Part shown: positions 45,716 to 61,298 of the stretch, piece after piece | Layout of the letters: each line of letters starts with the position of its first letter | Numbering within the stretch: position 1 is the stretch's first letter | Source: Bacilli bacterium | Lineage (GTDB): Bacteria > Bacillota_I > Bacilli_A > RFN20 > UBA1709 | Direction: 5' to 3' | DNA length: 64,000 nt | NCBI GenBank assembly: GCA_034115825.1 | Contig: JAXESU010000004.1 | Coordinates: 205,237-269,236, forward strand | Translations under genes and position numbers: made by a program | Notes under the pieces: model-generated | What the model saw: the letters and a program-made list of their open reading frames with translations, nothing else | What the model was told of the DNA's origin: nothing | Database searches by the model: none

Positions 45716-45829
45716 AATTTTCTACCTCACTAACTTTAAATATATTTTAATATAAAAAAGATAAAATAGCAATGTGAAATAAGTCTTTTTAATTAATTAA
45801 AAAGACAACCATGAATGGCTGTCTTTGTT

Positions 45830-47320
45830 CTAAATTAATGGCAATAATTCATTGACCATACTTTCTAATTTATTTACATAGAATGTACGATCTTTGCCCA
45901 ATGTTGTGTCAATTTCTGTAGTTTCAACTCCAGGATCTTTGACAATTTTACTAACATTCGTACTTAGAATATTACTTCCTTTTGTAATATTTAAAGAGTT
46001 TTTAATAATATTAAAATAATTATTAATTTGATCTTCGGTAAATCCCTTGCCTATTACTAAGCCATCATGCAAAGTTAAAAAAGCTTTTGCTTCGATTATA
46101 TTGTTATTATTAATAGACAACTTACCAGAATTTTCACTCGTTCCATAAGCATTACGTGCAATTTGAATTGCATTATTTTTGTCTTCATCTTTAATTGTTT
46201 TAATAGCATTTAAATTGAATGTATTATTTTCGATACGAGAAACAATACCATCTTTATTATAAGGTAATTGGATATTAATTGAACGAACACAATCACTAAT
46301 TGTATTTCCTACAATTTCATAACTTGTTTTTGTGTTTTGAGCAAAAATAGTAAGTGGATATCTACTTTTTCCAACGTTATAAAAAGTACAATTTTTAATT
46401 ACAAAATGAGCATCTCCACTTAAACTAATACCTACATTAGAAAAAATACAATCTTCAAATACAATCGTTTGATTACTTAATTTATTATCATTAGTTAATC
46501 CAGAACTCGAATTATTTGAAACAGAAATACTTGGAGAATCTCCTTTTTCACTCATATGTGTTGATCCAAAATACTTTCCTTTTACAGTAACTGTATTATC
46601 TACTACTGATATAGTATTGGCAAAAATATTTGTAGGTACTTTATCACTTATAATACTTCCCCAACTACCATTAGCATTATTCTCCTTGTTAATAATTTTA
46701 ACATCTTCACTACTAGTAACATTGTCAAAACTTTCTTTTAAAATTAAAGTTCCATTTTCAGCATTTACATTTACTGTAGGTTTAACATTCATTTCAATAG
46801 CGTTATTATTTAAATCAAAATTATAATTTGTAATTGTATCATTTGAGACAAAATTCAATCCACTATTTACAACAACAGAAGATAATAATGCATAATTTGA
46901 GACTCCTTTTTGTAAACGAAGTGAAGAGTCTAAAGTTGACCAAAGTTTGTCACTAGTGACTTCTTTTTTATCTTCAGGATACAAAATATTACCAGTCTCT
47001 TTATCAAGTAATAAACATTCTTTACCTTCACGATAATAAGCAAAAACATAATTTTTAGAAATTGTTTTGAAATGATTAGAATTAATTCCATTTTTTTCAA
47101 TTAAAGTTATTAATTCTGGTAATGTAATATCATCATCTAAAGCTGATTCTGCTTTTAATAATGTGTTATATTGCGTACACATTTGCTCATCTACAGACTG
47201 ATTAGCTTTTTCCGTAAAGCCTAAATAACCAACAGCTGAAACTGTTGCTAAAACAGCTAGAATAGCAATAACAACTAATAATTCAACAAGCGTAAATGCT
47301 CTCTTTTTAGTCTTTTGCAT
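45830..47320 (-). CDS. Type IV prepilin-like protein with a C-terminal parallel beta-helix-like domain (496 aa, Ala at -1)
   Basis: Class III signal KKRA|FTLVELLVVIAILAVLA and a conserved GYLGFT block shared with the other pilins. C-terminal PbH1-like repeats (NCTFYNVG, GNTISDC, ENNTFNLN). Last gene of the pilus locus; a terminator hairpin at about 45803-45824 follows on the minus strand. Confidence 0.6.
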   Translation of the reverse strand: MQKTKKRAFTLVELLVVIAILAVLATVSAVGYLGFTEKANQSVDEQMCTQYNTLLKAESALDDDITLPELITLIEKNGINSNHFKTISKNYVFAYYREGKECLLLDKETGNILYPEDKKEVTSDKLWSTLDSSLRLQKGVSNYALLSSVVVNSGLNFVSNDTITNYNFDLNNNAIEMNVKPTVNVNAENGTLILKESFDNVTSSEDVKIINKENNANGSWGSIISDKVPTNIFANTISVVDNTVTVKGKYFGSTHMSEKGDSPSISVSNNSSSGLTNDNKLSNQTIVFEDCIFSNVGISLSGDAHFVIKNCTFYNVGKSRYPLTIFAQNTKTSYEIVGNTISDCVRSINIQLPYNKDGIVSRIENNTFNLNAIKTIKDEDKNNAIQIARNAYGTSENSGKLSINNNNIIEAKAFLTLHDGLVIGKGFTEDQINNYFNIIKNSLNITKGSNILSTNVSKIVKDPGVETTEIDTTLGKDRTFYVNKLESMVNELLPLI

Positions 47321-47324
47321 AAAA

Positions 47325-49016
47325 CTACTCCCCTTTTCTTAATTTTTCACTTACGCGAACAACATCACTTAATTGTTCAAATTCTTCAAAAGAAGTTTCC
47401 CCATTTAAAACTCTTTCTTTAGCATTATCTAAGATTGATTGCATTTTTTGATTTAAAATTTCATTTAATCTTTCAGTATTAAAATCATCTGACATAATTA
47501 ATTCACGCATTCTTTCATCAAGAACCATGATTTCAAAAACACCAATACGACCACTATAACCAGTATTGTTACATTTACGGCATCCTTTAGCATGATAGAT
47601 TTCAACTGGATGATCTAAACCTAACATATGCATTTCAGCTAAAGTTGTTAGACGTTTTTCTTTACATTCTGGACATAACTTTCTAACTAAACGTTGTGAA
47701 ATAGCGCCTAGCAAAGCATCAGCTACTAAGTAACGTGGAATACCCATATTAATTAAACGAGTGATAACACCTGCAACATCATTAGTGTGGATAGTTGATA
47801 AAACTAAGTGACCTGTAATAGCTGCACGTGTAGCGATATTAGCTGTTTCTTCATCACGAATTTCACCGATCATAATAACGTTAGGGTCTTGACGTAAAAT
47901 TGAACGAAGAGCGTTAGCAAAAGTCATATTAGCTTTAACGTTAACTTGAACTTGGTTAATACCAACAATTTGGTTTTCAACAGGATCTTCAACCGTAATA
48001 ATATTCGTATCTTCTTTATTTAAATAACGTAAGAAAGCATACATTGATGTTGATTTACCACTACCAGTAGGACCAGTTAGAAGGATAATTCCATGTGGAC
48101 GAGTAATCATTTGTAATACTAATTCTTGTTGACGTTTAGAAAAACCTAAAGCATCTAAATTATCACTGCTAAAGGAAACGTTATAAATACGAATAACAAT
48201 TTTTTCACCATTAATAGTTGGAATTGTTGAAACACGGAAATCATATGGAACGCCTTTAACATCTAAACTAATCTTACCATCTTGAGGTACACGACGTTCA
48301 GCAATATTCATTTCAGCCATAATCTTATAACGAGCTAAAACTGCTTGATATAATGTTACGGGAATTGAATCAACACTTAATAATTTACCGTCAATTCTTA
48401 AACGAACGCGAACTTCAGTTTCAAATGGTTCAATATGAATATCACTTGCGCCACGAGAAATAGCATCTTTTAAGATTGAGTCACAAAGTTTAATAATTGG
48501 TGCATCAATACCAATATTTTCTTTTAATTGTTCACTACTATTTTTGTTTTCATCATTATATTCAGTTAAAACTGATGTTTGTTGTGCCTTATTATCAATG
48601 TATTCTAGTAATTTAGTAATTTGACTTGGGACAACTAAAAATAGTTTAATTTCTTTATTAACATTAAAGCGTAATTCATTAATTTCATCTTTTCTAAATG
48701 GATTAGCAAAACCCATATAAATATATTTATCATCTTCACTATATGGAACTACTTGAAATTCGATTAACTTTTCTCTTGGAAAGCGATTAGCAAGTTTAAT
48801 ATCAATTTCATTTAATTGATATGCTCTTAATTCAATATGTAAAAATGAAGATAATGATTCATAGACTTTTTGTTCATCTAATACATTATTTTTGATTAAT
48901 ACTGATGATAAAGGTTCAGCATTAACATTACTACTTTGTAAATACGGTTCAACATCATTTTGATTAATTACATTATGACTTACTAAAAAGGATGCAAATA
49001 AATCATTAAAAAGCAT
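47325..49016 (-). CDS. pilB: Type IV pilus assembly ATPase (GspE/PilB family)
   Basis: 563 aa. Walker A LLTGPTGSGKST and a tetracysteine CPEC...CRKC motif. Confidence 0.85.
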   Translation of the reverse strand: MLFNDLFASFLVSHNVINQNDVEPYLQSSNVNAEPLSSVLIKNNVLDEQKVYESLSSFLHIELRAYQLNEIDIKLANRFPREKLIEFQVVPYSEDDKYIYMGFANPFRKDEINELRFNVNKEIKLFLVVPSQITKLLEYIDNKAQQTSVLTEYNDENKNSSEQLKENIGIDAPIIKLCDSILKDAISRGASDIHIEPFETEVRVRLRIDGKLLSVDSIPVTLYQAVLARYKIMAEMNIAERRVPQDGKISLDVKGVPYDFRVSTIPTINGEKIVIRIYNVSFSSDNLDALGFSKRQQELVLQMITRPHGIILLTGPTGSGKSTSMYAFLRYLNKEDTNIITVEDPVENQIVGINQVQVNVKANMTFANALRSILRQDPNVIMIGEIRDEETANIATRAAITGHLVLSTIHTNDVAGVITRLINMGIPRYLVADALLGAISQRLVRKLCPECKEKRLTTLAEMHMLGLDHPVEIYHAKGCRKCNNTGYSGRIGVFEIMVLDERMRELIMSDDFNTERLNEILNQKMQSILDNAKERVLNGETSFEEFEQLSDVVRVSEKLRKGE

Positions 49017-49031
49017 TTCTTTCTTCCTCCT

Positions 49032-50240
49032 TTAACCAATATTTTGCATAAGTGAGATAATTGGTAAGAAAATAGCTAAAATTACTACACCAACAATGAC
49101 CCCTAATGTGATTATCATTAATGGTTCTAAAGCCGCTGTTGCTTTAGTAATAGATGATTCAACCATATCTTCAAAATATCTACTAGTTGATTTTAAAACA
49201 CCTTCTAAATCACCACTTTTTTCACCAACATTGATCATTTCCGTTAACATAAGTGGGAAGATTTTGGTGTTTTCAATTGATTTAGCAATACGTTTACCAC
49301 GCTTTACTTCTTCAATTGAGTATCTAAACTTTTCTTCAAACAACTTGTTATCTAACATTTTAGAGACGTTTTCCATCGCATCAGTAATATTCATACCACT
49401 TTCTAGAAGAATAATAAATGCTTTAGTAAAACGTGAGGTAATTAAGTTTTTTTGAACGGTTCCAAGAATTGGTAAATGTAATTTTAAATAGTCTTTACTA
49501 TATTTACCACTTTCAGTTTTAAAATATAAGATTATAATTAGCACAACTGCTAAGATGGCTGGAATGATAATAAAGATATTATTAACAAAGAACTCGGAAA
49601 TGTTCATAATAACTCTTGTTAAGGTTGGGATATCTCCACCTAATTCATTAATTGTCGACTCGAATTGAGGCAAGACAAATAAAGTCATAAATAATATAAC
49701 AACAATAATTAAGACCGAAACAATAATTGGATAAACCATTGCCCCTTTAACCTTTCTTTTAATACGACGATCATTTTCATAATAATCAGCCATACTTGAA
49801 AGAACAGTATCCAAAGAGCCAGATTCTTCACCGATTGCTACCATGTTAATAAAGAAATTTGGGAATACTTTTGGATGTTTTCGAAAAGCTTCAGATAAAA
49901 TAACCCCTGACATAACATCATTATAAATTTCACTTAAAACTTTTTGGAAAATCTTACTAAATTTTTGTTTGCGTAAAACATTAAGCGAATCGGCAATACT
50001 AATTGAAGCTTTTACCATTATTGAAAATTCTCGTAAAAATGAAACTACTTCATTAAATGGTACTTTACTTCTAACCGCCAAAAAAGTATTTGGTTTTTTC
50101 TCTTTAATAACTGTCGCACTTAATAAAATATAGTTATCTCTTTTTAAAAGAGCACGTAAACTTACTTCATCATTTGCTTCTTTAACAATAATTTTATTTT
50201 GTCCTAATTCATCAAGGACTTTACAATTGTATAGTAACAA
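49032..50240 (-). CDS. pilC: Type IV pilus platform protein (GspF/PilC family)
   Basis: 402 aa. Two T2SSF repeats each followed by transmembrane segments. Confidence 0.8.
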   Translation of the reverse strand: MLLYNCKVLDELGQNKIIVKEANDEVSLRALLKRDNYILLSATVIKEKKPNTFLAVRSKVPFNEVVSFLREFSIMVKASISIADSLNVLRKQKFSKIFQKVLSEIYNDVMSGVILSEAFRKHPKVFPNFFINMVAIGEESGSLDTVLSSMADYYENDRRIKRKVKGAMVYPIIVSVLIIVVILFMTLFVLPQFESTINELGGDIPTLTRVIMNISEFFVNNIFIIIPAILAVVLIIILYFKTESGKYSKDYLKLHLPILGTVQKNLITSRFTKAFIILLESGMNITDAMENVSKMLDNKLFEEKFRYSIEEVKRGKRIAKSIENTKIFPLMLTEMINVGEKSGDLEGVLKSTSRYFEDMVESSITKATAALEPLMIITLGVIVGVVILAIFLPIISLMQNIG

Positions 50241-50241
50241 A

Positions 50242-51021
50242 TTAAATCACCAGCCTTATATAAAAATCAATTAATAAGTTGCCATATAATAGAGCAAAAT
50301 ATGTTCCGATTAATAAATATGGTCCAAAAGCAATTTCACTATCGCGACTTTTCTTCTTTAAAGAAATTAATGTAACTTCAATAATCGATCCTAGAAGCGA
50401 ACCAACTAAAATTGCTATTATTAAACATTGATAACCTAAAAGAAGTCCGGAAATAGTCATTAAAATAACATCGCCCATTCCTAAACATTCTTGTTTCATC
50501 ACTAGTTTACCAATAACTTTAATTAAGAAAAAGAATAGAAATCCAACTAACGCCCCAATTAAATAAGGCATATAATCCATTTTTAAATAAAAAACTAAAT
50601 AACTAACATAACCTAAAGTTAAGATAAAATAAATAACTTGCGTTAAATCATAAATGTAATGAGTTTGATAATCAATGCCACCAATCACTAAAAACAAGCA
50701 GACTAATAACAAGACGAATATCAAATCATAACTTAAACGGAATTGTAAAAAAGCCAATAAAAAGCTTACTCCTCCTAAAATTTCTAAAATGAAGGAAAAA
50801 TATCCAATTGGACTATGACAATAACGACATTTACCTTTTAAAATGATAAAGCTTAAAATCGGAATATTGTCATACCATTTAATTTTTTGTTTACAATGAG
50901 GACAAAATGAATCTGGTTTAACAATGCTCATTTTATTTGGAACACGATAAATAATAACCCCAATAAAGCTAGCTAAAACTGTTCCTAAAATAAAGATAAA
51001 CACACTTACTAAATAAATCAT
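50242..51021 (-). CDS. pilD: Prepilin peptidase (A24 family, PilD/ComC)
   Basis: 259 aa. CPHC...CRYC zinc site. Catalytic Asp in GGIDYQ and LGMGDV. Confidence 0.8.
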   Translation of the reverse strand: MIYLVSVFIFILGTVLASFIGVIIYRVPNKMSIVKPDSFCPHCKQKIKWYDNIPILSFIILKGKCRYCHSPIGYFSFILEILGGVSFLLAFLQFRLSYDLIFVLLLVCLFLVIGGIDYQTHYIYDLTQVIYFILTLGYVSYLVFYLKMDYMPYLIGALVGFLFFFLIKVIGKLVMKQECLGMGDVILMTISGLLLGYQCLIIAILVGSLLGSIIEVTLISLKKKSRDSEIAFGPYLLIGTYFALLYGNLLIDFYIRLVI

Positions 51022-51212
51022 TTGCTCACCTCATCGCCAACAGTTTCTTGTAATTGATTAAATCGACTATTTATAATGGCACTATAACGATAAACGGAAA
51101 TAAAAGCAGCTAAAGAAATCGTTGAGATAAAGAAAGTTAAAACAATTGTAATGATTAAGGCATAGCCTTTATTCTTTTTACGCATGATTATATCTTCCTC
51201 CTTTATCACCAT
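51018..51212 (-). CDS. Small pseudopilin-like protein lacking Glu5
   Basis: 64 aa. KKNKGYALIITIVL resembles a class III signal sequence but has no Glu at +5. Confidence 0.3.
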   Translation of the reverse strand: MVIKEEDIIMRKKNKGYALIITIVLTFFISTISLAAFISVYRYSAIINSRFNQLQETVGDEVSK

Positions 51213-51624
51213 AAACTAATTCTTTAATGATGTATCTTTCACTATTTACTTCCTTAACAAATAATTTCATTTCGGTATAGTCATCGTCATCAAAATTATC
51301 GTAAATCGCAGTCAAGATATATTTAGCATTATCACTATTAGAAGAAGGCTCATAATTACTACTATAATAAACCATAAGAGTTTTATCAACTTCATTAAAT
51401 AAATATTCACCTGACTCATAATAGCTTTCATACCATTTTTGATAATATTTGCTACTAAATGAATCTATTTCATAACAAATAGTTTCAAAATGCATATATT
51501 CACGTTGTCTTTCTTCGCCTTTAACTGATAATAAATACGTTGTTAAGACGACACCAAAAGTTATAAGAAAGATAACTGATGCAACGATAACTTCAATTAA
51601 AGTCATCCCTCTTTTTTTCATCAT
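51178..51624 (-). CDS. Minor (pseudo)pilin
   Basis: 148 aa. KKRG|MTLIEVIVASVIF class III signal with Glu5. Confidence 0.55.
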   Translation of the reverse strand: MMKKRGMTLIEVIVASVIFLITFGVVLTTYLLSVKGEERQREYMHFETICYEIDSFSSKYYQKWYESYYESGEYLFNEVDKTLMVYYSSNYEPSSNSDNAKYILTAIYDNFDDDDYTEMKLFVKEVNSERYIIKELVYGDKGGRYNHA

Positions 51625-52769
51625 AATTTAATACCTTTCAAACGATAATGACTAAAATCAATATTATAATCAAGTCTTGTTAAACCATTAGTAATTGATG
51701 ATAAATCATATTCTTTGTCACTAGCATAAATGTAATTAGTAATTTTACGTTTTTCTAATTCAAATTCATGCTTAGCAATAATTGATAAATATTGACTAAT
51801 GATATCAGTTTCATCATTACATTCAAAACTATAGAAAGTTACTAATTTACCATTAAATGAATTCATTAATGTACATAGATTGTTTTGTACATAAATTAAT
51901 GCAAAATCTTCTTTAATATCATTTTTAATGTTATCAAATAAATAATTGCCCCATAAATTATAACTATTAATACTAACACCTAAAATTTTAGCAACTTTTT
52001 TAAAATAATTAATAATTGCTAAAGGAACAAAGTAAGTATAATAAACACTACCTAATTTATGTTCATACAAATGTTCAAAAGTTACATATTTGTCTTTAAA
52101 ATCAGGGAAATCATTTTTAATTTCTTTTTGATAAAGTTTAATTGCTTTACTTTTACTCATCTTTGGTAATGAAATAACACTTCTAAAACATTCATCAACA
52201 CTTAATAAGATATCAAGAGTTCCTAATTTAGAAACGTTCGCTTTAATTAAATCAGTAACAGCATCAATATTAGCAAAAACACCATTAACAATTGAAAAAG
52301 TTGAAACATTTAAATTAACTTCTTCTTTTAATAATCCTTTTTCATAACGAGATAACTTTAAACTAGGTGTTCCAATGTTATTGAAAAATAAGACTAAACG
52401 ATCTTTTTTATCATAAACAACTTTTTTATTAGGTTTGATTTCTTTAACATCGTTTTTTACTTCTTCTTTAATTTCTTTTGTTTCTTCTTTGACTTCAGTA
52501 ACTTCTTCTTTACTTTCTTCTTTTATCTCTTCACTACTTGCAACTTCAACAGCTTGCTTAACAACTTCTTCTTGATGCTCTTCAATTATTTCTTCTTTTT
52601 TACTCTCTTGATGAGCATCAATTTCTCTTTGTAATTCTTTATTGATTTTTATTTCTTTTTGCTTATCCTTTTTCCTAAAGTAGTTAATTGTCGCAACATA
52701 ACTAACTGGAATAAAAACTAATAAAATAACCGCAACAATAAAAATAATTAAATACAAATCTTTATTCAT
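51621..52769 (-). CDS. Putative pilus assembly protein (PilM-like actin-fold region behind an N-terminal TM helix and a Glu/Lys-rich coiled coil)
   Basis: 382 aa. N-terminal hydrophobic helix, then a KEE-repeat region, then a roughly 250-aa domain in the position a PilM/N/O component would occupy. Assignment by context and weak similarity only. Confidence 0.35.
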   Translation of the reverse strand: MNKDLYLIIFIVAVILLVFIPVSYVATINYFRKKDKQKEIKINKELQREIDAHQESKKEEIIEEHQEEVVKQAVEVASSEEIKEESKEEVTEVKEETKEIKEEVKNDVKEIKPNKKVVYDKKDRLVLFFNNIGTPSLKLSRYEKGLLKEEVNLNVSTFSIVNGVFANIDAVTDLIKANVSKLGTLDILLSVDECFRSVISLPKMSKSKAIKLYQKEIKNDFPDFKDKYVTFEHLYEHKLGSVYYTYFVPLAIINYFKKVAKILGVSINSYNLWGNYLFDNIKNDIKEDFALIYVQNNLCTLMNSFNGKLVTFYSFECNDETDIISQYLSIIAKHEFELEKRKITNYIYASDKEYDLSSITNGLTRLDYNIDFSHYRLKGIKL

Positions 52770-52909
52770 AATTTACATTCTCCTATTTCTTATTTATACT
52801 TTTTCTAACTAGTCTATTGACAATTAAATAACTAATTGGTAACAAAATAATCAACGTAACACAAAAAACAAATATGAATAAATAAAAATCTTTTAGCATA
52901 AAAGTCCCC

Positions 52910-53353
52910 CTATTCACAACAAGTAAAAACTAAACTATCTTCACCATATGAACCATTAAATTTAATTGTATATGTAAATTCATGAACAATACTTCCATTA
53001 TTGTCTACATTACGACAAATGATTTCGATAACTGTAATTCGATCACACTTAATCAAATTTTCTCCATTGTACATAACTGAATCATCATTAATTTTATAAC
53101 TATACAATTGAAGTTCATCAATAACATCAATAATATCTTTATTCTCTTCGTATATTTCATGTGTGTGATTAATCATATGATCTTTAATAGCCAAAATTTT
53201 TAAATTAGTACTAGCATCAGTAGTTACCTCATTAGAAACTTTTGATATAAAAAAAACCGAGGATACAAGTGTTAAAATCATAATAGACGCACTAGATATT
53301 GTTACAATTAATTCTATTAACGTCATACCTTTTTTCTTTTTCACTCTTATCAC
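52910..53353 (-). CDS. Minor (pseudo)pilin
   Basis: 147 aa. KKKG|MTLIELIVTI class III signal with Glu5. Confidence 0.55.
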   Translation of the reverse strand: MIRVKKKKGMTLIELIVTISSASIMILTLVSSVFFISKVSNEVTTDASTNLKILAIKDHMINHTHEIYEENKDIIDVIDELQLYSYKINDDSVMYNGENLIKCDRITVIEIICRNVDNNGSIVHEFTYTIKFNGSYGEDSLVFTCCE

Positions 53354-53434
53354 CTCGCTATTATCTATTATAATGTTACCCCTTATTAACCCTATATGTC
53401 AACAAATATATTTTTATATAAAAATATAAATAAA

Positions 53435-53465
53435 AAAATCACCCTCATAAAGAGAGTGATTTGAG
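53435..53465 (-). terminator. Intrinsic terminator immediately after the 149-aa pilin gene
   Basis: Minus-strand ATCACTCTCTTT-ATGAGGGTGAT hairpin followed by UUUUUUU. Confidence 0.4.
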
Positions 53466-53478
53466 ATAATAAAACTAA

Positions 53479-53928
53479 TTATTTTGAGCCAACGATTTCG
53501 TCAGTAGCTAAAGTCCAAGTTGCTTTTGCTGATTCAATTTTATAGACAATTGAAGTTAAAGTACCATCTGAAGCAATCTCAGCATCAATAACAGAACCAT
53601 CTTGTTTTGATAATTCAAAATATTTTTCAAGTGCTTTATCTAGTTCTTCAGAAGTAGTAGCATTTTCAGCACCTTTTTTTACAACAACTTTATTTGGTTC
53701 AGTCATTGTGAATGTATAACCTTCAATAACTTCTTCACCATCTGCTAAACCTGCAACTAACATCGTTTTGTATTGAGTTAATTCCGTAACTGCCTTAGAT
53801 TCTCTAGCATTTTGAGTAAAACCTAAATAACCAACAACTGAAACTGATGCTAAAATAGCTAAAATAGCAATAACAACTAATAATTCAACTAATGTAAAAC
53901 CTTTTTTCTTATTTTTTCTGTTAATCAT
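53479..53928 (-). CDS. pilA: Type IV pilin (candidate major pilin, 149 aa)
   Basis: KKKG|FTLVELLVVIAILAILASVSVVGYLGFTQNARESKAVTELTQYKT. Small size and its own terminator suggest the major subunit. Confidence 0.65.
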   Translation of the reverse strand: MINRKNKKKGFTLVELLVVIAILAILASVSVVGYLGFTQNARESKAVTELTQYKTMLVAGLADGEEVIEGYTFTMTEPNKVVVKKGAENATTSEELDKALEKYFELSKQDGSVIDAEIASDGTLTSIVYKIESAKATWTLATDEIVGSK

Positions 53929-54062
53929 TTTAATTTTCTCCTCCTGTTAACATAAAAAACGTAGACTATTCATATTTGTCGCATTATTTATAAAAGTCCG
54001 CTTTTTTATTATAGTAATTTTTTATAAATATGTCAAATATGTTTTTTCTTATTAGGATTACA

Positions 54063-54527
54063 CTATTTTTCAACAGCAGTTATTTCATCATTGATTATAT
54101 CCCATGTTGCAATAGCTTTGTCAGTAATATACTTCAATTCAACAAGTCTACCATTTACCTCAGAGTTATCAATTTTAGTATTTAAAACATGAGCATTTTT
54201 ATTAGAAATATCTATATCAAAATAATCTACTAATGCCAAATATAAATCGTCTATTGGTTCCCCTAGTGTTGATATCTTTTTAGTTATAATAATTTTATTA
54301 GTTTCAGGCATTGTAAATGTAAATGAACCAATTTGTTCTTTTCCATCAGCCAAATCCGCTATCAATTTTGTCTTATATTGTGTAAGCTCGCTAATAGCTT
54401 TTGATTCATTTGCTTTTTTTGTAAAAGCTAAATAACCTAGAATAGATGCTGATGCTAATATAGTTAATATAACTATTACAACTAATAACTCAACTAATGT
54501 AAATCCTTTGTTTCTTTTTTTACTCAT
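54063..54527 (-). CDS. Type IV pilin paralog (154 aa)
   Basis: NKG|FTLVELLVVIVILTILASASILGYLAFTKKANESKAISELTQYKT. The C-terminal ATWDIINDEITAVEK parallels ATWTLATDEIVGSK of the 149-aa pilin. Confidence 0.65.
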   Translation of the reverse strand: MSKKRNKGFTLVELLVVIVILTILASASILGYLAFTKKANESKAISELTQYKTKLIADLADGKEQIGSFTFTMPETNKIIITKKISTLGEPIDDLYLALVDYFDIDISNKNAHVLNTKIDNSEVNGRLVELKYITDKAIATWDIINDEITAVEK

Positions 54528-54676
54528 CTTCTATTGCCTCCAATCAAAAAATATGTTTGTTTTTTCAATACTTTTTCGATTTTTTATTCTATATGAATTA
54601 AATAGTAAAGTCAAGCAATGTGATAATAATTAATCAAATAAAAAATAGAGGTTAGTTACCTCTATTCTTTATAAAA

Positions 54677-55639
54677 TTATTTTTCATCATTGTAATTAAC
54701 GTTGATTACACCAGTTAATTTATAGTAGGCTGTTTCAATTTGTTTTTTAACGTTTTCTAAATCCTCGTCATTTCTAACAGTAATCTTAATTGGTTTCAAT
54801 TTTAATGGTTCTAAACCATTACCAACTTTCAATTTACCCATTTTAAATTTAACGACTAATGTATTTTGTTTAATGCTAATTAAAGCCAAAGTTTTTCTTT
54901 GACCAACTCTAATTCTTTGATCATAATCATAATTATTAATATTAGTATTTTCAAAATCTAAAGCATAATTTACGATCTCATCATAATATTTTCTTTGAGC
55001 AACATTTAATCTTTCAAAAGAAACAGCAAATTTTTCTTTTTCGGCTACACCAATCTTTTTAACATTACCTTCTTCTTCTAATTCTTCATCATCGAATTCA
55101 TTCTTTACGACAACCTTTTCAACTGTTTGAACAGTTGTAGGTGTTGGCTCTTTAACTGCATATATTGCAGAATAGAATAGTGCTACTAACATATAAATAG
55201 CTACACCTACTATCATTGATACTAAAAACCATATTGATAAAGAAACAGCAAATACTTGACCAACATAAGTTAATGCTTTGGCAAAAGGAAGCTTACTAGC
55301 AAATGATCCAGTTCCAACTAAACCAATAACAAGACCAACAATAATTGCAGCAACTAATCTAGAAATCTTTAATCCTTGATTTTTAACATAACTAACTTCA
55401 ACCATAATAAATGCAACAATTAATCCTATACCAAAACTCATTACTGCTAAATAGTTAGCAACAGTTGGATGTAAAACAGGCATTCTTAAAATTGCACGTG
55501 AAATTGCTTGAAATACATTTGATTCACCTAATAAATGTAAATCATAATCTAATGCAAATGCAGTAAATGCAAATAAAAATGTGTAAAATAAACTAAGAGT
55601 AACGTATAAAATATTTCTTCTACATACTTTTTTATTCAT
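54677..55639 (-). CDS. Membrane protein of unknown function inside the pilus locus
   Basis: 320 aa. Five transmembrane segments, then an acidic linker and a soluble C-terminal domain of about 140 aa. Confidence 0.3.
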   Translation of the reverse strand: MNKKVCRRNILYVTLSLFYTFLFAFTAFALDYDLHLLGESNVFQAISRAILRMPVLHPTVANYLAVMSFGIGLIVAFIMVEVSYVKNQGLKISRLVAAIIVGLVIGLVGTGSFASKLPFAKALTYVGQVFAVSLSIWFLVSMIVGVAIYMLVALFYSAIYAVKEPTPTTVQTVEKVVVKNEFDDEELEEEGNVKKIGVAEKEKFAVSFERLNVAQRKYYDEIVNYALDFENTNINNYDYDQRIRVGQRKTLALISIKQNTLVVKFKMGKLKVGNGLEPLKLKPIKITVRNDEDLENVKKQIETAYYKLTGVINVNYNDEK

Positions 55640-55837
55640 ATATATTCCCCTTTCATTAGTAAGTAAAAAAATTATTAAGTAACGTATTTAAATAAAATTA
55701 TTTTTGTCGATATATAATTATTAAAAATACATTAACTATCTAGGTATATATTAAAGTATAATCAAAATAGTGTCAATAAATTATAATAAAAAGCACGAGA
55801 AATCAGATTAAAAAATCTTTTTTTCTCGTGCATAATA

Positions 55838-57004
55838 TTACTTAATATTTAAATTAGAAAAAACAATACCTCTATTAACATCTTCAATTGAGTTATATGT
55901 GTTCCATAAGTATCTGAATCCACCAATATTAGCGATTTTATTAACATGATCTCCAGATTTTTCGTAATTTGCTACCTTAATATCATAATGTATTGTATCG
56001 CCAATAACTTCCAATTTCATAGATACAGTAACTTTTGAATTATTTATTTCTTCACCATCACGCAAAATAACAGCTAAATTTCCTTTTCCCCAATTTCCAG
56101 CATCATCAGAAAAACAGTTTGTCATAGGAGCTAAAGCATAATATTTATCATTACTTTTTGCTAATCCAACCATTATTTCTGTATTTTGTGATCCATTAGT
56201 GCCATTAAAACCTAATGAAAATTGTACATTATCATTATTCTCCATACTTGATAAATCTAAATCAAATGAAACAGTTGTAGCACTGCCATCCCAATCTAAA
56301 TTTTTATCAGTTTCGGTAAAATAAGTGGTTGGACCTGAACCATCATTATCTTTTGCAATTTTAATGCCATTATCAACAGCTAATACTTTTCCGTATTCTA
56401 AAGGAGTTTTAAAAACATCTTCTAGAGTATCGTTATTAATTTTCTTAGCTTCAATTTCATGATAAGAATTGCCACATGCATCACATTTATATTCAACATC
56501 GCCATTTACAAATGGTTGAACTGAAACATTTTTTACTTCTTTTAATTTGTGTTGATGTTCTGAAGATACTTCATCGCTAATAACATTCCATGTTGCATAT
56601 ACATTATCATCAATGCTATAAACTATTTCATCAATAATAAATTTTTCATCTTCGTTTGTAACCTTGAAGAAGAAATCAGCATCATCATCAGCTTCAACAA
56701 AAGAAATAAATGCATCTTCTAAACTACCTTTATATAGCATCATTTCAATTCCTTTATCACTTTTAGAAACTAATGCTACTTTTCCTTCTTCATTTGAAAT
56801 TACCTTATTTCCAGTAACTAAATTTGCTGTAGCTACTGTTTTATATTGTGTAAGTTCAGTTAATGCTTTAGATTCTTTCGCACGACTAGTAAAACCTAAA
56901 TATCCAACTACTGAAACACTTGCTAATACCGCTAATATTGCGATAACTACTAATAATTCAACTAATGTAAAAGCTTTACGTTTAATTTTTTTCATTTTTT
57001 TCAC
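55838..57004 (-). CDS. Type IV prepilin with an extra C-terminal domain of about 240 aa (388 aa, Ala at -1)
   Basis: RKA|FTLVELLVVIAILAVLASVSVVGYLGFTSRAKESKALTELTQYKT. The pilin core ends near ...YATWNVISDEVSSEH. An additional Cys-containing domain follows. Confidence 0.6.
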   Translation of the reverse strand: MKKMKKIKRKAFTLVELLVVIAILAVLASVSVVGYLGFTSRAKESKALTELTQYKTVATANLVTGNKVISNEEGKVALVSKSDKGIEMMLYKGSLEDAFISFVEADDDADFFFKVTNEDEKFIIDEIVYSIDDNVYATWNVISDEVSSEHQHKLKEVKNVSVQPFVNGDVEYKCDACGNSYHEIEAKKINNDTLEDVFKTPLEYGKVLAVDNGIKIAKDNDGSGPTTYFTETDKNLDWDGSATTVSFDLDLSSMENNDNVQFSLGFNGTNGSQNTEIMVGLAKSNDKYYALAPMTNCFSDDAGNWGKGNLAVILRDGEEINNSKVTVSMKLEVIGDTIHYDIKVANYEKSGDHVNKIANIGGFRYLWNTYNSIEDVNRGIVFSNLNIK

Positions 57005-57067
57005 CTCTAAAATAATTGTATAACTCTTATGTCAACAATGTCAACCTTAAAAAGTTATATAGTATAT

Positions 57068-57100
57068 AAAAATGGACTAAATCAATTAGTCCATTTTTAA
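57068..57100 (-). terminator. Hairpin TGGACTAA-ATCAA-TTAGTCCA with flanking T-runs on both strands, overlapping the stop of the Lgt-like gene
   Basis: Perfect 8-bp stem read from the sequence. It separates the giant-pilin/Lgt-like pair from the 388-aa pilin gene. Confidence 0.4.
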
Positions 57101-57748
57101 TCTTTTTTCGCGAACTTTTTTCACAATAATAATTATAATTCCTAATATAATAGAAACTATAGACCAAAGTTGGCCTATGCTAATTAAATCAAATAGCAAG
57201 TTCCAGTGGAATCTAAAAAATTCAATTACAAATCTACAAGTCCCATAAACTATCAATAAATATGGGTAAGAATATCCATTAATAAATCTATTAAAGACGA
57301 GAATAGTGACAAAAATTATCAATGCTATTCCAGCTTCAATTAATTGTATAGGTACTTGATATCCATTAATTTCAATACCATAACAACATCCTTCGATATA
57401 ACAACCTATTTTCATAAAAACTAGCATTAGCATATGCAAAGGAGTTATCAAATCCAATGTTTCTATAAAGTCTAGTCTTCTAATCTTTGAATAAATAAAT
57501 GGGATTAAAGATAATGAAAATATTGTACCGTAGAATGAAACACCAGTATACGCGAATGATAAAGCTTCAATAGAAGCAAATATCGCTGCAAATATATAAG
57601 CAAAAATAATTTGCAAAATTGTAAGAATCAAACCATCAATAATGGAATATCCATTTTTTTTAAATATTATTGTGAATGTTATTATGGATATTACTGCTCC
57701 TATAAAATACATTCCTAGTGAGGAAATAAAATTAAACATTAAAAACAT
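57086..57748 (-). CDS. Divergent prolipoprotein diacylglyceryl transferase (Lgt)-family membrane protein
   Basis: 220 aa, about seven transmembrane segments. YGTCRFVIEFFRFHWN matches the Lgt block GYGAFRIIVEFFRQPD. ISIGQLWSIVSI matches ISMGQILSIPMI. The canonical Lgt signature GRxGNFxNGE is replaced by GCYIEGCCYGIE, and the His of GMSFHGG appears as Tyr (TGVSFYGT). Comparison was made against the E. coli Lgt sequence recalled from memory. Confidence 0.5.
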   Translation of the reverse strand: MFLMFNFISSLGMYFIGAVISIITFTIIFKKNGYSIIDGLILTILQIIFAYIFAAIFASIEALSFAYTGVSFYGTIFSLSLIPFIYSKIRRLDFIETLDLITPLHMLMLVFMKIGCYIEGCCYGIEINGYQVPIQLIEAGIALIIFVTILVFNRFINGYSYPYLLIVYGTCRFVIEFFRFHWNLLFDLISIGQLWSIVSIILGIIIIIVKKVREKRLKMD

Positions 57749-57759
57749 AAACTATTCCT

Positions 57760-60405
57760 TTAATTTAAGATAGTTTCATTAAAATATGAATTACCATCTC
57801 TTGTAGCATATACCTCAAAGTATCCTACATTATAAACAGATTCTTTTGTTGTCTTCTTCCAATTAACTTCACCATCAACAAAGATTACTTCGCTCATTTG
57901 CTTTGAACTTAATATCTTACCATTAAAACCACACTTACCAGATATAACTAACTTACCATCAATTTTAATTAGTGCATCTTGTTGATATTTATTAAATGTT
58001 AATGAGTTTCCTTGACTATCAAAATATTGATTATATCCATAAATTGTATCATTTTTAGATGGCTTTTGTGTATTATTCTCAGCCCATTGATAAGCAACAA
58101 GTCCAGAATTATCCAATTTTAATATACCACCATCTTCGACAGTTAAAGATGATCCAGGCATCATCTTTACACCTGTAGGATCGCCTTCATCATTAGTGGT
58201 TATATCTAATTGAGCTCCATTTTTAACAACAACATCATATAGTCCACTTATTGGCATTTCAACCTTACTTGTATTAGCCGCAATTTCTGTAGGAGGACAA
58301 CTAATATTAATACCCATATATAATTTATCTACTATAGAAGTTCCTTTTGTAATTTCTAACAATGTTCTATTAGTTGACTTATTATGATAATAAGTTATTT
58401 CATTTCCAGAATTCATTTTGAATATTGCTTCATATTGATTTGAATCATTATTTGGAGCAATAACATTTGCAATCATTGCTGCTTTAATCTTAGCACTATT
58501 AACGTGAATTAATAATTGTGCTTTAAATATAGAATTATATTTAAATAAAGTTTTAACAAAAAGACCATCCATGTAATAAGTTCCAAATTGAAATACGTTA
58601 TTAGTCAATTCCTTTGAATAAGTTCCTCCATTAAAGGAATCTGTAACCATCATGCCATACAAAGTGGCACCAGAACCAATAATTAATCTTTGAACATCAT
58701 CATTGCTAGAAATAACGCCATAATTCACAAGTTTACTACCACTTCTAATAGTTAATAATCCTTTTGAATTTAATGTTAGTTGGCCATAATTTCCAACCAA
58801 TTGAGACGACTTTTCTGTTGAGTTACCTGCATAGTGATATCCACCAACAAACACATTACCATCAACATATAATTTTGCATCAATATTTAAATTTGAATAC
58901 ATATTTAAAGGATTGTTGTCACGTGTATACCATGCTGCATCTTGAGTAAATGGCTCTTTGACATTATCATACTTGATTGTGTCATTATCAATCATAGGTA
59001 CTCTTAAAATATCTTTACTTTCTAAAACAACATCTCTATTTATTACTCCATCTTTACCCAAGACATATAATTCTTCTTCAATGCCATTATTTGCATATTC
59101 AATGGCATCATTAATATCAAAATACTTGTCACCGATTTTTACATTTGGTGTTACATTTTCAAACATTACATAAATTTTTAATCTACCATTTTCGTCAGTT
59201 AAAAATTCATCACCAGCATCTATTGTGTGATAATAAATACTTGTTGGTAGCCCATCAAGAGTTACCTTCTTCTCAATAGAAATATAGTCATCTGATGGAT
59301 TATATTTCCAACCAACAAATTTGTTTGCAATCTTTGTATCACTGCTAGGGACAAACATATCATATGCTGAAATTTCAACACTTTCTTTTGTATATTCAAC
59401 GACAGTTGTTTTTGCTTCACTTCCGTTAACATATGACACAAATACTACTTCTTTTACAGCATTTTTTCTATCTGTATTAACAACAATATTAGATGAAATT
59501 TCTTTCCAACCTTTTGCATTTAGCATATCAATAAATTCTTGTGAAGAAATTACTGTTGAATTATCAACTAATTTTTTCAAAGAATCATATGCATTATCAT
59601 CAATTGTTTTAACATTTGATGGAATATCAACAATTCTAATTTTACGACTAGAAATTTTATCAACAGTTGTTTTATTTAAATTAACTACATTTTGACTAAA
59701 AATAGCGTATCTTTTAGGTTGAGTGTTTTCATCAATAAATTCACTATTACCTTCATTATTAGCACCAACAAACGAAGCATTGTTAACAAGTGTGCTTAAT
59801 GTACTATATACGCTAACACCTGTATCATTCATATCGTTAGCTTTACTAAAACCATTAATTGTTTCTAATGCTTTTGTAATATCACTGTAAGACTTTGGAT
59901 TTCTAATTGTATTTATTGCATCAGCAAATCCATCTCTAGATGATTTACCTATTAATAAATAACCATCAATAAAACTTTCAGGTGCATAGATTAAATCATC
60001 AATTGTTCCAAAAGTTTCTACTCCATATGTACTTGATTTAGAATCATCTTCAGGATAAACCTTTTTATAACCATTTTTATCAAAATCACCTAATTCTACT
60101 CTATTTGTGTTTGTGTTATAGAATAAATAGGCATTTTTTGATTCTGTTTTAAGTTCAAATCCTTTTTCTTCTAAATTTTCAACTATTTCAACTGCTGCAA
60201 CAGGACTATCTGTATAAGCTTGTTCTGCTGCAAGAACATGGTTAATGTTACTAACTAATTGAATATCTTTTGATCTTCTTGCATTTTCAATAAAGCCAAG
60301 ATAACCAACAGTAGAAACAGTTGCAAGAATAGCTAAAATAGCAATTACAACTAATAATTCAACAAGAGTAAATGCTTTTTTGCCATTTTTCTTCTTATTA
60401 AACAT
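57760..60405 (-). CDS. Giant type IV prepilin-like protein (881 aa, Ala at -1) with a large beta-rich C-terminal domain
   Basis: GKKA|FTLVELLVVIAILAILATVSTVGYLGF N-terminus. About 830 further residues with Gly/Asn/Thr/Ser-rich repeats suggestive of parallel beta-helix/adhesin folds. First gene of the locus. Confidence 0.6.
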   Translation of the reverse strand: MFNKKKNGKKAFTLVELLVVIAILAILATVSTVGYLGFIENARRSKDIQLVSNINHVLAAEQAYTDSPVAAVEIVENLEEKGFELKTESKNAYLFYNTNTNRVELGDFDKNGYKKVYPEDDSKSSTYGVETFGTIDDLIYAPESFIDGYLLIGKSSRDGFADAINTIRNPKSYSDITKALETINGFSKANDMNDTGVSVYSTLSTLVNNASFVGANNEGNSEFIDENTQPKRYAIFSQNVVNLNKTTVDKISSRKIRIVDIPSNVKTIDDNAYDSLKKLVDNSTVISSQEFIDMLNAKGWKEISSNIVVNTDRKNAVKEVVFVSYVNGSEAKTTVVEYTKESVEISAYDMFVPSSDTKIANKFVGWKYNPSDDYISIEKKVTLDGLPTSIYYHTIDAGDEFLTDENGRLKIYVMFENVTPNVKIGDKYFDINDAIEYANNGIEEELYVLGKDGVINRDVVLESKDILRVPMIDNDTIKYDNVKEPFTQDAAWYTRDNNPLNMYSNLNIDAKLYVDGNVFVGGYHYAGNSTEKSSQLVGNYGQLTLNSKGLLTIRSGSKLVNYGVISSNDDVQRLIIGSGATLYGMMVTDSFNGGTYSKELTNNVFQFGTYYMDGLFVKTLFKYNSIFKAQLLIHVNSAKIKAAMIANVIAPNNDSNQYEAIFKMNSGNEITYYHNKSTNRTLLEITKGTSIVDKLYMGINISCPPTEIAANTSKVEMPISGLYDVVVKNGAQLDITTNDEGDPTGVKMMPGSSLTVEDGGILKLDNSGLVAYQWAENNTQKPSKNDTIYGYNQYFDSQGNSLTFNKYQQDALIKIDGKLVISGKCGFNGKILSSKQMSEVIFVDGEVNWKKTTKESVYNVGYFEVYATRDGNSYFNETILN

Positions 60406-61176: not shown

Positions 61177-61298
61177 TTAAGGTTATCCTTTTTATTAACT
61201 TACTGCATTAAATAAAAATAATTATTATTTGACTATCACAATCCATTTGGTGTATAATATAAATGCCCTACAAAATAGGGTATTAAGAAGGTGGATTG

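Follow-up and report, generated by a model that had tools for sequence, protein, structure and literature searches.

A probable type IV pilus locus of an uncultured Bacilli bacterium, with modular pilins whose predicted beta-helix cargos differ between near-identical strains

Modular pilins were catalogued in 2021 (PMC8179133). In S. sanguinis, the bulky modular pilins PilB and PilC are polymerised and act as adhesins (PMC8179133), PilB having a vWA module and PilC a lectin module of the concanavalin-A-like kind (Raynaud et al. 2021, PMC8179133; PMC9934059). The locus described here shares with that system a monoderm host, a single pil locus that encodes several modular minor pilins, and a pair of small pilins that are paralogues (PilE1 and PilE2 there, of 149 and 154 aa here). 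The concept of a module grafted onto a pilin for filament display is also the same. It differs in its effectors, which are predicted beta-helices and an unnamed lipoprotein-type domain undetected by signature databases, and in size, one protein being about twice as large as PilB. Dataset S1 of the catalogue contains three proteins with the architecture IPR012902-IPR039448, listed without analysis (PMC8179133). The combination of pilin and beta-helix, for which the preliminary description of this DNA saw sizes far outside the usual range, was already on record in that supplement. We take IPR039448 to be the right-handed beta-helix domain of InterPro, and the architecture to be pilin plus right-handed beta-helix. 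The likeness is to the order proposed below for the 496-aa family, an N-terminal methylation motif and then a right-handed beta-helix. The window proteins fall below Pfam detection, and therefore would not count in the catalogue.

Large minor pilins with extra structural domains are also found as ComZ (Thermus thermophilus) and CofB/TcpB (type IVb pili), for which a tip location and ligand or DNA binding have been proposed, while in the type II secretion pilin GspK an extra domain is inserted into the pilin sheet (PMC8179133). ComZ and CofB resemble the present proteins in having extra beta-rich domains, a beta-solenoid in ComZ and a beta-repeat with a beta-sandwich in CofB. ComZ and CofB/TcpB belong to diderm systems, unlike the monoderm host here, and no sequence relation of the window pilins to them was found in this analysis. 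The ComZ module, like that of GspK, is inserted rather than appended. Strain-specific pilA alleles of P. aeruginosa form groups that have their own downstream accessory genes, and they are exchanged by recombination within a conserved 5' region and within conserved flanks.

The present locus lies in a 64-kb window, the whole stretch of DNA analysed, from an uncultured, low-GC (~27%), anaerobic, gut-type Bacilli MAG. A minus-strand cluster at 45830-60405 holds seven prepilin genes together with pilD, pilC and pilB. From its genes and predicted folds it is best read as a monoderm-type type IV pilus locus, within a whole explanation that we favour slightly. Genes other than those of the five main prepilins are as follows.

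50242..51021, minus strand: PilD prepilin peptidase / N-methyltransferase (A24_N_bact E 7e-31, Peptidase_A24 E 2e-11)
49032..50240, minus strand: PilC platform protein (T2SSF E 1e-59, two repeats)
47325..49016, minus strand: PilB assembly ATPase with MshEN-type N-terminal domain (T2SSE E 8e-134, MshEN E 2e-9)
51178..51624, minus strand: 148-aa minor prepilin, KKRG↓MTLIEVIV (N_methyl E 5.3e-6; TIGR02532 above cut-off)
52910..53353, minus strand: 147-aa minor prepilin, KKKG↓MTLIELIV (motif scan; N_methyl E 2e-3, under cut-off)
51018..51212, minus strand: small ORF of 64 aa (55 aa as called in other assemblies), N-terminus KNKG↓YALIITIV
51621..52769, minus strand: 382-aa protein with N-terminal transmembrane helix, Lys/Glu-rich linker and ~260-aa domain
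54677..55639, minus strand: 320-aa polytopic membrane protein, 98-99% conserved in the locus

The pilD-pilC-pilB set that had been claimed is therefore present, with A24 peptidase, T2SSF and T2SSE matches, as are the extra minor pilins, found as the 148- and 147-aa prepilins and the 55/64-aa pilin-like ORF. This small ORF has a pilin-like N-terminus without Glu5, is 100% conserved in strain A, and gave no family match in Pfam or NCBIfam; it may encode an alpha-1-only minor pilin. A phmmer search with PilB against all ORFs of the window returned PilB alone, so that as the sole T2SSE-family ATPase it leaves no PilT retraction ATPase there. Nor did Pfam, NCBIfam and PDB searches reveal a recognisable PilM/N/O match among the window proteins. 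The 382-aa protein, without significant match in the same three databases, keeps its position in the locus in all four strains compared, and may be a putative functional counterpart of PilM/N/O. The 320-aa protein is encoded by two ORFs instead of one in one strain.

Five further prepilin genes had been proposed, and all were located with the expected lengths on the minus strand.

53479..53928, minus strand: 149-aa type-A pilin (N_methyl E 1.2e-10)
54063..54527, minus strand: 154-aa type-A pilin (N_methyl E 3.6e-10)
55838..57004, minus strand: 388-aa modular pilin, type-A module with HxH..CxxC linker and beta-rich cargo
45830..47320, minus strand: 496-aa modular pilin, type-B carrier with predicted beta-helix (N_methyl E 3.6e-8)
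57760..60405, minus strand: 881-aa modular pilin, with leader, carrier, middle domains and predicted C-terminal beta-helix (N_methyl E 1.1e-7)

NCBI gives the pilins here the product name 'type II secretion system protein'. The class III signal that had been proposed for them is real, as all five exceed the curated cut-offs of Pfam N_methyl (PF07963, E-values 1e-7 to 1e-10, far beyond chance) and TIGR02532. They share this signal and the start of helix alpha-1, and alignment reproduced the described N-terminus, K/R-[GA]↓FTLVELLVVIAILAxLAxVSxVGYLGF. As a marker of one family this segment holds only in part: it is common to the five, but its FTLVELLVVIAILAILA core recurs across many phyla as a generic pilin N-terminus, and the apparent paralogy of the pilins rests on the sequence after that core. 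Two other described features were seen in the alignment, the ESKAxxELTQYKT block in the 149-, 154- and 388-aa pilins, and the landmark ATW(T/D/N)..DE(I/V), past which the 388-aa protein runs for 239 aa.

The 149-aa type-A pilin is the probable major subunit, as had been suggested. Its gene has an AGGAGG ribosome-binding site and is flanked by its own signals, the terminator-like hairpin lying directly behind it as described.

54008..54036, minus strand: sigma-70-type promoter TTGACA-17-TATAAT (12/12 consensus), upstream of the 149-aa gene
53436..53462, minus strand: intrinsic-terminator-like hairpin and T-run, directly 3' of the 149-aa gene

The exposed, globular centre of this pilin (~aa 66-135) differs from strain to strain, its two ends staying identical; identity to the L088 protein is 78.5%. 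The 154-aa pilin, 51% identical to it and 98.7-100% conserved between strains, is possibly a second major subunit.

A single pilin scaffold had been suggested for all five. Instead, two distinct modules were found, with only about the first 45 residues in common. Type A (~145 aa) occurs in the 149-, 154- and 388-aa pilins, and type B (~119 aa, with the C-terminal end ..YPED) in the 496- and 881-aa pilins. Type B also occurs in ~230 further large metagenomic pilins of up to 1359 aa, and is shared by a consensus of 232 pilins of at least 400 aa. Alignment of the family profile with the alternative allele P0132 by hhalign covered residues 1-119 only, at 99.9% probability, which sets the boundary of the module. 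The sizes had been thought far outside the known range, yet 201 relatives of at least 500 aa, and 23 of at least 850 aa, were retrieved.

56558..57004, minus strand: type-A module of the 388-aa protein, aa 1-149, up to ATWNVISDEV (alignment)
60046..60405, minus strand: type-B carrier of the 881-aa protein, ~aa 1-120 (AF2 secondary structure: alpha-1 aa 14-58, a short helix, three beta-strands aa 93-117)
46964..47320, minus strand: type-B carrier of the 496-aa protein, aa 1-119, ending ..ILYPEDKK (hhalign; AF2: alpha-1 aa 11-59, strands aa 91-114)

The 388-aa type-A module is 46% and 37% identical to the small pilins (BLASTP). The N-termini of the 496- and 881-aa proteins are predicted to form a pilin fold, a long alpha-1 with a small beta-sheet, with the cargo directly after it. 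The claim that the three large proteins each combine a pilin module and a cargo domain is supported. The parts beyond the modules are as follows.

57763..59145, minus strand: predicted right-handed parallel beta-helix of the 881-aa protein, ~aa 421-881
59146..59988, minus strand: middle region of the 881-aa protein, ~aa 140-420 (AF2 secondary structure)
45833..46963, minus strand: predicted right-handed parallel beta-helix cargo of the 496-aa protein, aa 120-496
55841..56557, minus strand: cargo of the 388-aa protein, aa 150-388, of a rare unnamed family with STYFGExDKNxDWDG ... GxRYLWN

The AF2 model of the 496-aa protein had a pLDDT of 82.8 and a pTM of 0.83; that of the 881-aa protein, based on eight sequences only, had a pLDDT of 74.9 and a pTM of 0.64, and gave no Foldseek match in the PDB at E<=1e-3. 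Its middle region is modelled as an alpha/beta domain and, after it, a beta domain that contains an F-x-GW motif, without Pfam match or assignable family. Of the PbH1/beta-helix repeats described earlier, Pfam detected none, no beta-helix family matching the window proteins; only structure prediction and Pfam matches in homologues support them. The 388-aa cargo has no Pfam or PDB match. A HMMER search of 1.84 billion representatives gave 24 matches at E<=1e-3, including the protein itself; nearly all of the 23 relatives carry lipoprotein signals, with L-x-A-C-G lipoboxes in the alignment, and elsewhere the family occurs on proteins of 220-320 aa with such signals.

Three other metagenome assemblies belonging to this species were compared with the window, giving four independent assemblies from which 'strains' were inferred. 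Gene order is common to all four, and the machinery is 94-100% identical (PilD and PilC, 99-100%). The 388-aa protein is also conserved, at 97.7-98.2%. Against this background two blocks stand out, with sharp identity breaks at ~59900 and ~57100, and at ~47200 and ~45750.

57100..59900, minus strand: hypervariable block 1, the 881-aa (giant) pilin from ~aa 170 to its end and the whole Lgt-family gene
57086..57748, minus strand: Lgt-family (prolipoprotein diacylglyceryl transferase-like) membrane protein, 220 aa (PF01790 E 2.8e-21)
45750..47200, minus strand: hypervariable block 2, the 496-aa gene beyond ~codon 40

Sliding-window nucleotide identity in block 1 against two strains was 40-77%, compared with 96-99% in the flanks, and in block 2 an apparent 43-56%, compared with 98-99%. 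The giant pilin is 100% identical over aa 1-100 in three strains, but 49% overall; beyond ~residue 170 it falls, with the adjacent Lgt-family gene, to 16-46%, and beyond aa 450 to 16-34% (50-aa blocks). The Lgt-family gene co-varies with the giant-pilin allele: the identity of its protein to that of strain A is 63%, and to that of strain C, where the 881 allele is that of the window, 100%. In place of the 496-aa allele strain A has one of 445 aa, whose cargo shows no detectable homology, and the sample with an 887-aa giant allele carries the 496-aa allele of the window. The two cassettes therefore assort independently between strains, given an allele pairing within each sample that is an assumption, as one sample may hold several strains. 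As in P. aeruginosa pilA, allele exchange would take a neighbouring gene along, here that of the Lgt family; there it is the major pilin that is exchanged, whereas here it would be effector modules on modular minor pilins.

Many of the best structural matches of the cargos are depolymerases, lyases and glycosidases. The beta-helix modules might accordingly be enzymes presented on the pilus (polysaccharide lyases, glycosidases or depolymerases) that act on glycans of mucin, plants or capsules, in which case the pilus would serve foraging or the remodelling of biofilms and not adhesion. We consider this unlikely, though the best placed of the alternatives. Adhesins (TibA, Ag43, PfbA and tapirin) are among the top matches too, the tapirin likeness being at generic fold level only, and tapirins are not described as pilins in their paper. 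Conserved beta-helix positions are mostly Gly, aromatic, hydrophobic or Asn, no conserved acidic or basic catalytic cluster was found in either beta-helix family, and no CAZyme-type Pfam family matches the window proteins. Identity of 16-34% between strains is met more typically in surfaces for binding or antigenic surfaces than in an active site under conservation.

A little less probable again is a reading in which the class III signal serves the large proteins for export and anchoring only. Once cut by PilD, they would be surface-displayed proteins kept in the membrane by alpha-1, or would assemble into a short pseudopilus or a bindosome-like structure, and would not be part of long pili. 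The bindosome of archaea, with sugar-binding proteins that have class III signals, offers a precedent. The cargos are bulky (up to ~85 kDa), and relatives of two of them are lipid-anchored surface proteins, so that membrane-proximal display would be their usual setting. Position -1 is Ala in all three modular pilins (in the 881-aa leader followed by F(+1) and E(+5)) and Gly in the four small pilins; Ala(-1) occurs in 87/201 retrieved relatives of at least 500 aa compared with 4/32 below 300 aa (Fisher p 7e-4). Mutagenesis in P. aeruginosa reportedly showed that Ala at -1 lowers cleavage efficiency. An 853-aa homologue from a species further removed lacks pilus machinery in the flanks covered, 4.7 kb upstream and 10 kb downstream. 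However, all three large proteins strictly conserve Glu5 and the whole of the alpha-1N polymerisation interface, each has a full globular pilin module beyond a mere signal, and in four strains the genes sit inside a complete pilus locus. S. sanguinis PilB (~50 kDa), moreover, does enter pili (PMC8179133).

A competence (Com) or type II secretion pseudopilus with decaying or misassembled large ORFs, as the NCBI name and weak sub-threshold NCBIfam matches of the N-terminus to ComG and Gsp pseudopilins might imply, is highly improbable and already contradicted, since those matches lie far under curated cut-offs and cover the generic N-terminus only, full-length homologues exist, the AF2 models are confidently folded, and the intact large ORFs are not artefacts, being called identically in the NCBI annotation of the source MAG (MDY4788923.1, 881 aa; MDY4788910.1, 496 aa) and reassembled from other samples at 98-99.5% (99.5% in L088, 98% in L087).

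The reading we prefer, somewhat better than even in our estimate, is a type IV pilus that displays cargos on modular pilins, with the beta-helices exchanged between strains. PilD would cut the short basic leader off the seven prepilins, and PilB with PilC would polymerise the 149-aa pilin into a fibre, probably with its 154-aa paralogue. We infer that the three modular pilins enter this fibre via their N-terminal pilin modules, most likely at the tip or sparsely along it, as their cargos are bulky. The major-pilin-like type-A module of the 388-aa protein would bear a small domain that in relatives sits on lipoproteins, and the 119-aa type-B module the predicted right-handed beta-helices of the 496- and 881-aa proteins, whose role is most likely to bind ligands, probably glycans, on the surface of a host, of food or of microbes. 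Homologous recombination would swap these beta-helix cargos between strains, with one crossover falling within the conserved 5' part that encodes the carrier and the second within conserved sequence downstream; for the giant pilin, the exchanged tract would include the adjacent Lgt-family gene.

Two further differences from S. sanguinis are that the beta-helix pilins have a dedicated carrier, unlike the major pilin and common to hundreds of metagenomic proteins, and that their cargos are replaced between strains. The modular-pilin architecture itself was already known (PMC8179133). The locus is no new kind of system, but a new and informative example of the 'modular pilin' idea, because its two beta-helix domains differ strongly between near-identical strains. 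This replacement of beta-helix cargos as cassettes is what is new here and the most interesting feature of the locus; through such exchange, each strain would come to have its own combination of pilus-displayed modules.

ORF calling in the window resolved the type IV pilus locus into an uninterrupted run of 14 ORFs on the minus strand (45830-60405). Five of them encode the prepilins described previously.

Prepilin genes of the locus (ORF calls with N_methyl and TIGR02532 matches)
45830-47320, minus strand, 496-aa prepilin
53479-53928, minus strand, 149-aa prepilin
54063-54527, minus strand, 154-aa prepilin
55838-57004, minus strand, 388-aa prepilin
57760-60405, minus strand, 881-aa prepilin (the giant pilin)

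All five scored above the curated thresholds for N_methyl PF07963 (E = 1 × 10−7 to 1 × 10−10) and TIGR02532. Alignment reproduced the features by which the preliminary description had grouped them: a near-identical N-terminal segment, K/R-[GA]↓FTLVELLVVIAILAxLAxVSxVGYLGF, in all five; the block ESKAxxELTQYKT in the 149-, 154- and 388-aa proteins; and the landmark ATW..DE(I/V), past which the 388-aa protein runs for 239 residues. Each shows the hallmarks of a class III signal, namely a short basic leader that ends in Gly/Ala (−1), then a hydrophobic first residue (+1) and Glu5. The cleavage site reads KKG↓FTLVE in the two shortest proteins (149 and 154 aa) and K(K/R)A↓FTLVE in the three longest (388, 496 and 881 aa). 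A six-frame motif scan found seven prepilins in the window, every one inside this locus; the two beyond the five are minor pilins of 148 and 147 aa. Another ORF (55/64 aa) resembles a pilin at its N-terminus but lacks Glu5.

The expected pilD-pilC-pilB set was also present, comprising a PilD A24 peptidase with both domains, a PilC with two T2SSF repeats and a PilB with T2SSE (E = 8 × 10−134) and an MshEN-type N-domain. A second T2SSE ATPase was not found in the 64-kb window, and thus there is no PilT there. None of PilM, PilN or PilO was recognised; a 382-aa protein is without Pfam or PDB relative. Ahead of the 149-aa gene lie a perfect consensus promoter (TTGACA-17-TATAAT) and an AGGAGG ribosome-binding site, and a terminator hairpin follows it; all of these fit its proposed role as the major subunit. 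A ComG (ComGC-GG) or Gsp (GspG-K) pseudopilus was rejected, as matches fell far below curated cut-offs and covered the generic N-terminus only. It was also ruled out that the large ORFs are pseudogenes: NCBI annotates both the 881-aa (MDY4788923.1) and the 496-aa protein (MDY4788910.1; 'Bacilli bacterium' MAG, contig of 274,736 bp), and each allele was assembled independently from further samples.

The shared N-terminus had been read as a single pilin scaffold. Past approximately the first 45 residues, the five proteins instead split into two groups with different carrier modules. Type A is a module of ~145 aa found in the 149-, 154- and 388-aa proteins (37-51% identity), while in type B, the module of the 496- and 881-aa proteins, the last residues are ..(V/I)x(F/Y)PE(D/E). 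When the 496-aa family profile was compared with an alternative allele by hhalign, residues 1-119 alone aligned (99.9% probability), which fixes the type-B boundary. AlphaFold2 models of the type-B module contain a long alpha-1, one or two short helices and a small antiparallel sheet (helix 11-59 and strands 91-114 in the 496-aa protein; helix 14-58 and strands 93-117 in the 881-aa protein), with the cargo directly after. The module is thus predicted to be a pilin fold, and sequence matches to pilins of solved structure cover alpha-1. The core FTLVELLVVIAILAILA is generic: matches listed in a scan of GTDB genomes with back-translated GFTLVELLV and VIAILAILA, both generic pilin N-termini, were from Planctomycetota, Verrucomicrobiota and CPR. 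Paralogy therefore rests on sequence downstream of the core. With boundaries drawn from hhalign (aa 119), the ATW..DE landmark and the AlphaFold2 models, the three large proteins fit the definition by Raynaud et al. 2021 of modular pilins, in which a short linker joins a pilin module to one that is not pilus-specific. Outside the window, the genome has at least one further type-A modular pilin, a 316-aa protein on the same MAG contig (P0218) with a different C-terminal domain of ~170 aa.

Past the N-terminal motif, the cargos of all three large pilins gave no sequence match in Pfam, NCBIfam or PDB. For the 496- and 881-aa proteins, the suggested PbH1/parallel beta-helix was borne out at the level of predicted fold, both models having the stacked three-strand coils of a right-handed parallel beta-helix, and not as a Pfam match in the window proteins. 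Neither protein matched PF13229/PbH1 even at E ≤ 0.1. Among 19 homologues of the 496-aa protein, three matched PF13229 and one PF20585, and no member of the 881-aa family matched a right-handed beta-helix profile in Pfam. The 496-aa family profile returned only weak pentapeptide, tailspike and pectinesterase matches from PDB, and Foldseek found no PDB match for the 881-aa model at E ≤ 1 × 10−3. In the shallow alignments of both families, conserved positions are mainly Gly, aromatic, hydrophobic and Asn, with no conserved acidic cluster, a pattern that argues weakly for binding over catalysis.

A phage origin of these cargos was rejected. Searches of 50,697 phage records by tblastn returned no match for the 496-aa cargo and one weak match, probably bacterial, for the 881-aa cargo. 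The latter lies in an 'UNVERIFIED' fecal scaffold labelled phage, where a lipoprotein-type surface protein of 1753 aa, with ABC-transporter genes adjoining, has the distant relative of the beta-helix (23% identity, E = 3 × 10−6) at its C-terminus; a protein of this type in such a neighbourhood makes the scaffold probably bacterial. The 388-aa cargo has no counterpart in Pfam or PDB and, across 1.84 billion representatives searched in full with HMMER, only 23 relatives. These are 220-320 aa long, nearly all start with a lipoprotein signal and lipobox (L-x-A-C-G), and some also contain the HxH...CxxCG linker. Two cargos, that of the 388-aa protein and the 881-aa beta-helix, thus have lipid-anchored relatives and are fused to a pilin here.

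The class III motif was present in 295 proteins returned by the searches, with a median length of 589 aa; 201 are at least 500 aa, 23 at least 850 aa, and the longest is 1359 aa. The 881-aa protein had been thought far outside the known range. It is large, yet with these lengths it is not an outlier in its family, and an 860-residue modular pilin has been published (PMC8179133). The preliminary description therefore held in its observations and in part of its interpretation, the single scaffold and the unprecedented size being given up. The type-B consensus is common to 232 proteins of at least 400 aa. Judged by source names alone, the family occurs in 'Bacilli bacterium', 'Candidatus Caccosoma sp.' and 'Clostridia bacterium'. 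An additional Pfam domain could be recognised in about one-tenth or fewer of the returned proteins: Beta_helix, GH28, Pectate_lyase_5, LRR_5, Glug, M26 peptidase and esterase in the 496- and 881-aa lists, and LTD, CBM26 and Flg_new_2 in the 388-aa list, where matches cover the N-terminal module only.

Two loci of other organisms contain relatives in different settings. In a more distant species (L004, 4760-13913), an 853-aa homologue (cluster of 23 sequences) has no pilus machinery in the 4.7 kb upstream and 10 kb downstream of it that were covered; four large ORFs (682, 614, 290 and 535 aa) without Pfam family come after it. In the other (L085, 1029-6132), the genes after a 977-aa relative of the giant pilin encode a 235-aa membrane protein and a Wzy_C protein (O-antigen ligase/PglL-PilO-like), a neighbour that hints at O-glycosylation of such pilins.

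Variation between strains was examined in three further metagenome assemblies, in which the same locus has an unchanged gene order: L001/L002 (strain A, SRR16894834), L003 and L087 (SRR13517625), and L088 (strain C, SRR9866654). Strain A and the window are near-identical in the machinery and differ greatly in the giant pilin.

Protein identity between strain A and the window
PilD, 99.6%
PilC, 99.8%
154-aa pilin, 100%
320-aa membrane protein, 98.8%
388-aa pilin, 97.7%
giant pilin (881 vs 866 aa), 49%
Lgt-family protein, 63%

In 50-residue blocks, identity between the giant pilins is 100% over aa 1-100, 50-98% to aa 300, ~40-46% to aa 450 and 16-34% beyond. A 200-bp sliding comparison resolved the divergence into two sharply bounded islands, with flanks 96-99% identical.

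Divergent islands (window coordinates)
~59900-57100, island 1, giant-pilin cargo and the entire Lgt-family gene
~47200-45750, island 2, 496-aa gene past approximately codon 40

In place of the 496-aa gene, strain A has a 445-aa allele whose cargo shows no detectable homology to the 496-aa cargo, with PbH1-like repeats again abundant. A sample with an 887-aa giant allele has the 496-aa allele of the window (98%). In strain C, the giant pilin is the 881-aa allele of the window (99.5%) and the Lgt-family protein is identical. Since giant-pilin and 496-aa alleles combine differently among samples, the two cassettes appear to assort independently, assuming one strain per sample. The major pilin of strain C is 78.5% identical to that of the window, with a 3-residue deletion; the difference lies in the central part (~aa 66-135) and both termini are identical, as would be typical of an exposed, selected pilin surface. 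In L003 (12416-13378), the 320-aa membrane protein is split into ORFs of 87 and 179 aa by a frameshift or assembly error.

The 220-aa Lgt-family gene (57086-57748, minus strand) has a pilin gene on either side in each of the four strains and is co-transferred with the giant-pilin cargo: its product is 63% identical between strains with different pilin alleles and 100% between strains that share one. Its motif KIGCYIEGCCYG presumably departs from the canonical Lgt signature. The protein might be an allele-specific accessory factor; that an Lgt-family gene lies beside pilins of which two have lipoprotein relatives of their cargos may be coincidence. Exchange of pilin alleles together with an accessory gene recalls the pilA allele groups of P. 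aeruginosa, where the pilin allele is exchanged with a downstream accessory gene.

We take IPR039448 to be a right-handed beta-helix domain. Modular pilins are an established class of more than 1,200 proteins in 264 architectures, and the supplement to that survey lists the architecture IPR012902-IPR039448 for three proteins (PMC8179133). Compared with these, the present proteins differ in having cargos invisible to signature databases, a dedicated and widespread carrier module, one cargo of lipoprotein origin, and effector modules replaced as cassettes within one species. Tapirins, beta-helix adhesins beside a Gram-positive type IV pilus locus, have conserved N-termini and variable C-termini, and resemble the present proteins in predicted fold only. 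No paper joining 'modular pilin' with 'beta-helix' was found in the literature searched. The strain-level cassette replacement is a new observation.

The host is an anaerobe with an Fe-only hydrogenase. This enzyme, a fusion with rubrerythrin and a rubredoxin-like domain (7888-10026, plus strand), indicates, together with a ZMP/ZTP riboswitch upstream of purine biosynthesis genes (6580-6664, minus strand), a probable anaerobic fermenter. Beyond the locus, a strain-variable island (61296-62551, plus strand) lies beside a tRNA (62607-62677, minus strand). In the window it holds three ORFs, which may together form a toxin-antitoxin-chaperone module: one of 136 aa belongs to no family, one of 144 aa matches an HTH_3/MqsA-like antitoxin, and the match of the third, of 131 aa, is SecB-like and weak. 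The same site has a 347-aa RNase III-like gene in L001 and L088, and a 194-aa ORF in L003. As the organism is known from metagenomes only, we infer function throughout.

From established knowledge of type IV filaments and the S. sanguinis precedent (PMC8179133), PilD would process the prepilins, and PilB and PilC would polymerise the 149-aa pilin, perhaps along with the 154-aa one, into a fibre. The modular pilins would be incorporated via their pilin modules, with cargos exposed, probably at the tip. Position −1 is Ala in all three modular pilins and Gly in the four small pilins, and Ala(−1) is enriched among large proteins of the wider set (Fisher p = 7 × 10−4). Given the specificity of prepilin peptidases, Ala at −1 may mean slower processing, which, if so, would fit low abundance.

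Ligand recognition, with glycans the probable ligands, under selection that is diversifying or niche-specific is the role suggested by three features: the predicted beta-helix fold, the extreme variability between strains and the absence of a conserved acidic cluster from the shallow alignments. A direct role of the extra module in pilus-mediated function is what we infer from fold and strain variability alone. The beta-helix modules could instead be enzymes displayed on the pilus, but this is less likely; the shallow alignments of these families show no conserved acidic cluster. Less likely still, the large proteins would be displayed at the membrane without polymerisation; PilD, PilC and PilB are encoded within the same locus as the prepilins.

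Returning to pilus-borne ligand recognition, a broader reading can be offered tentatively. The 119-aa type-B module may be a dedicated 'plug-and-play' carrier across uncultured gut Bacillota, bearing hundreds of mostly unannotated effectors (beta-helices, LRR, Glug, esterase, peptidase and others), with entire cassettes swapped inside a species by carrier-anchored recombination. If true, type IV pili would serve as a hypervariable, strain-defining surface recognition system, comparable to phage tailspike swapping.

Modular pilins are the current explanation of how one simple filament does many jobs; to our knowledge, those studied so far are few and come from cultured pathogens only. Because signature databases miss many effector modules, the published census is too low; the conserved carrier module could serve as a search handle for such proteins in gut metagenomes. 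Cargo domains move between lipoprotein and pilin display. In a natural population, effectors are replaced as cassettes while the machinery is constant, which points to strong diversifying or niche-specific selection on pilus ligands. Should host or dietary glycans prove to be ligands of the cargos, these modules would become candidate determinants of niche specificity at the level of strains among poorly known gut Bacilli.
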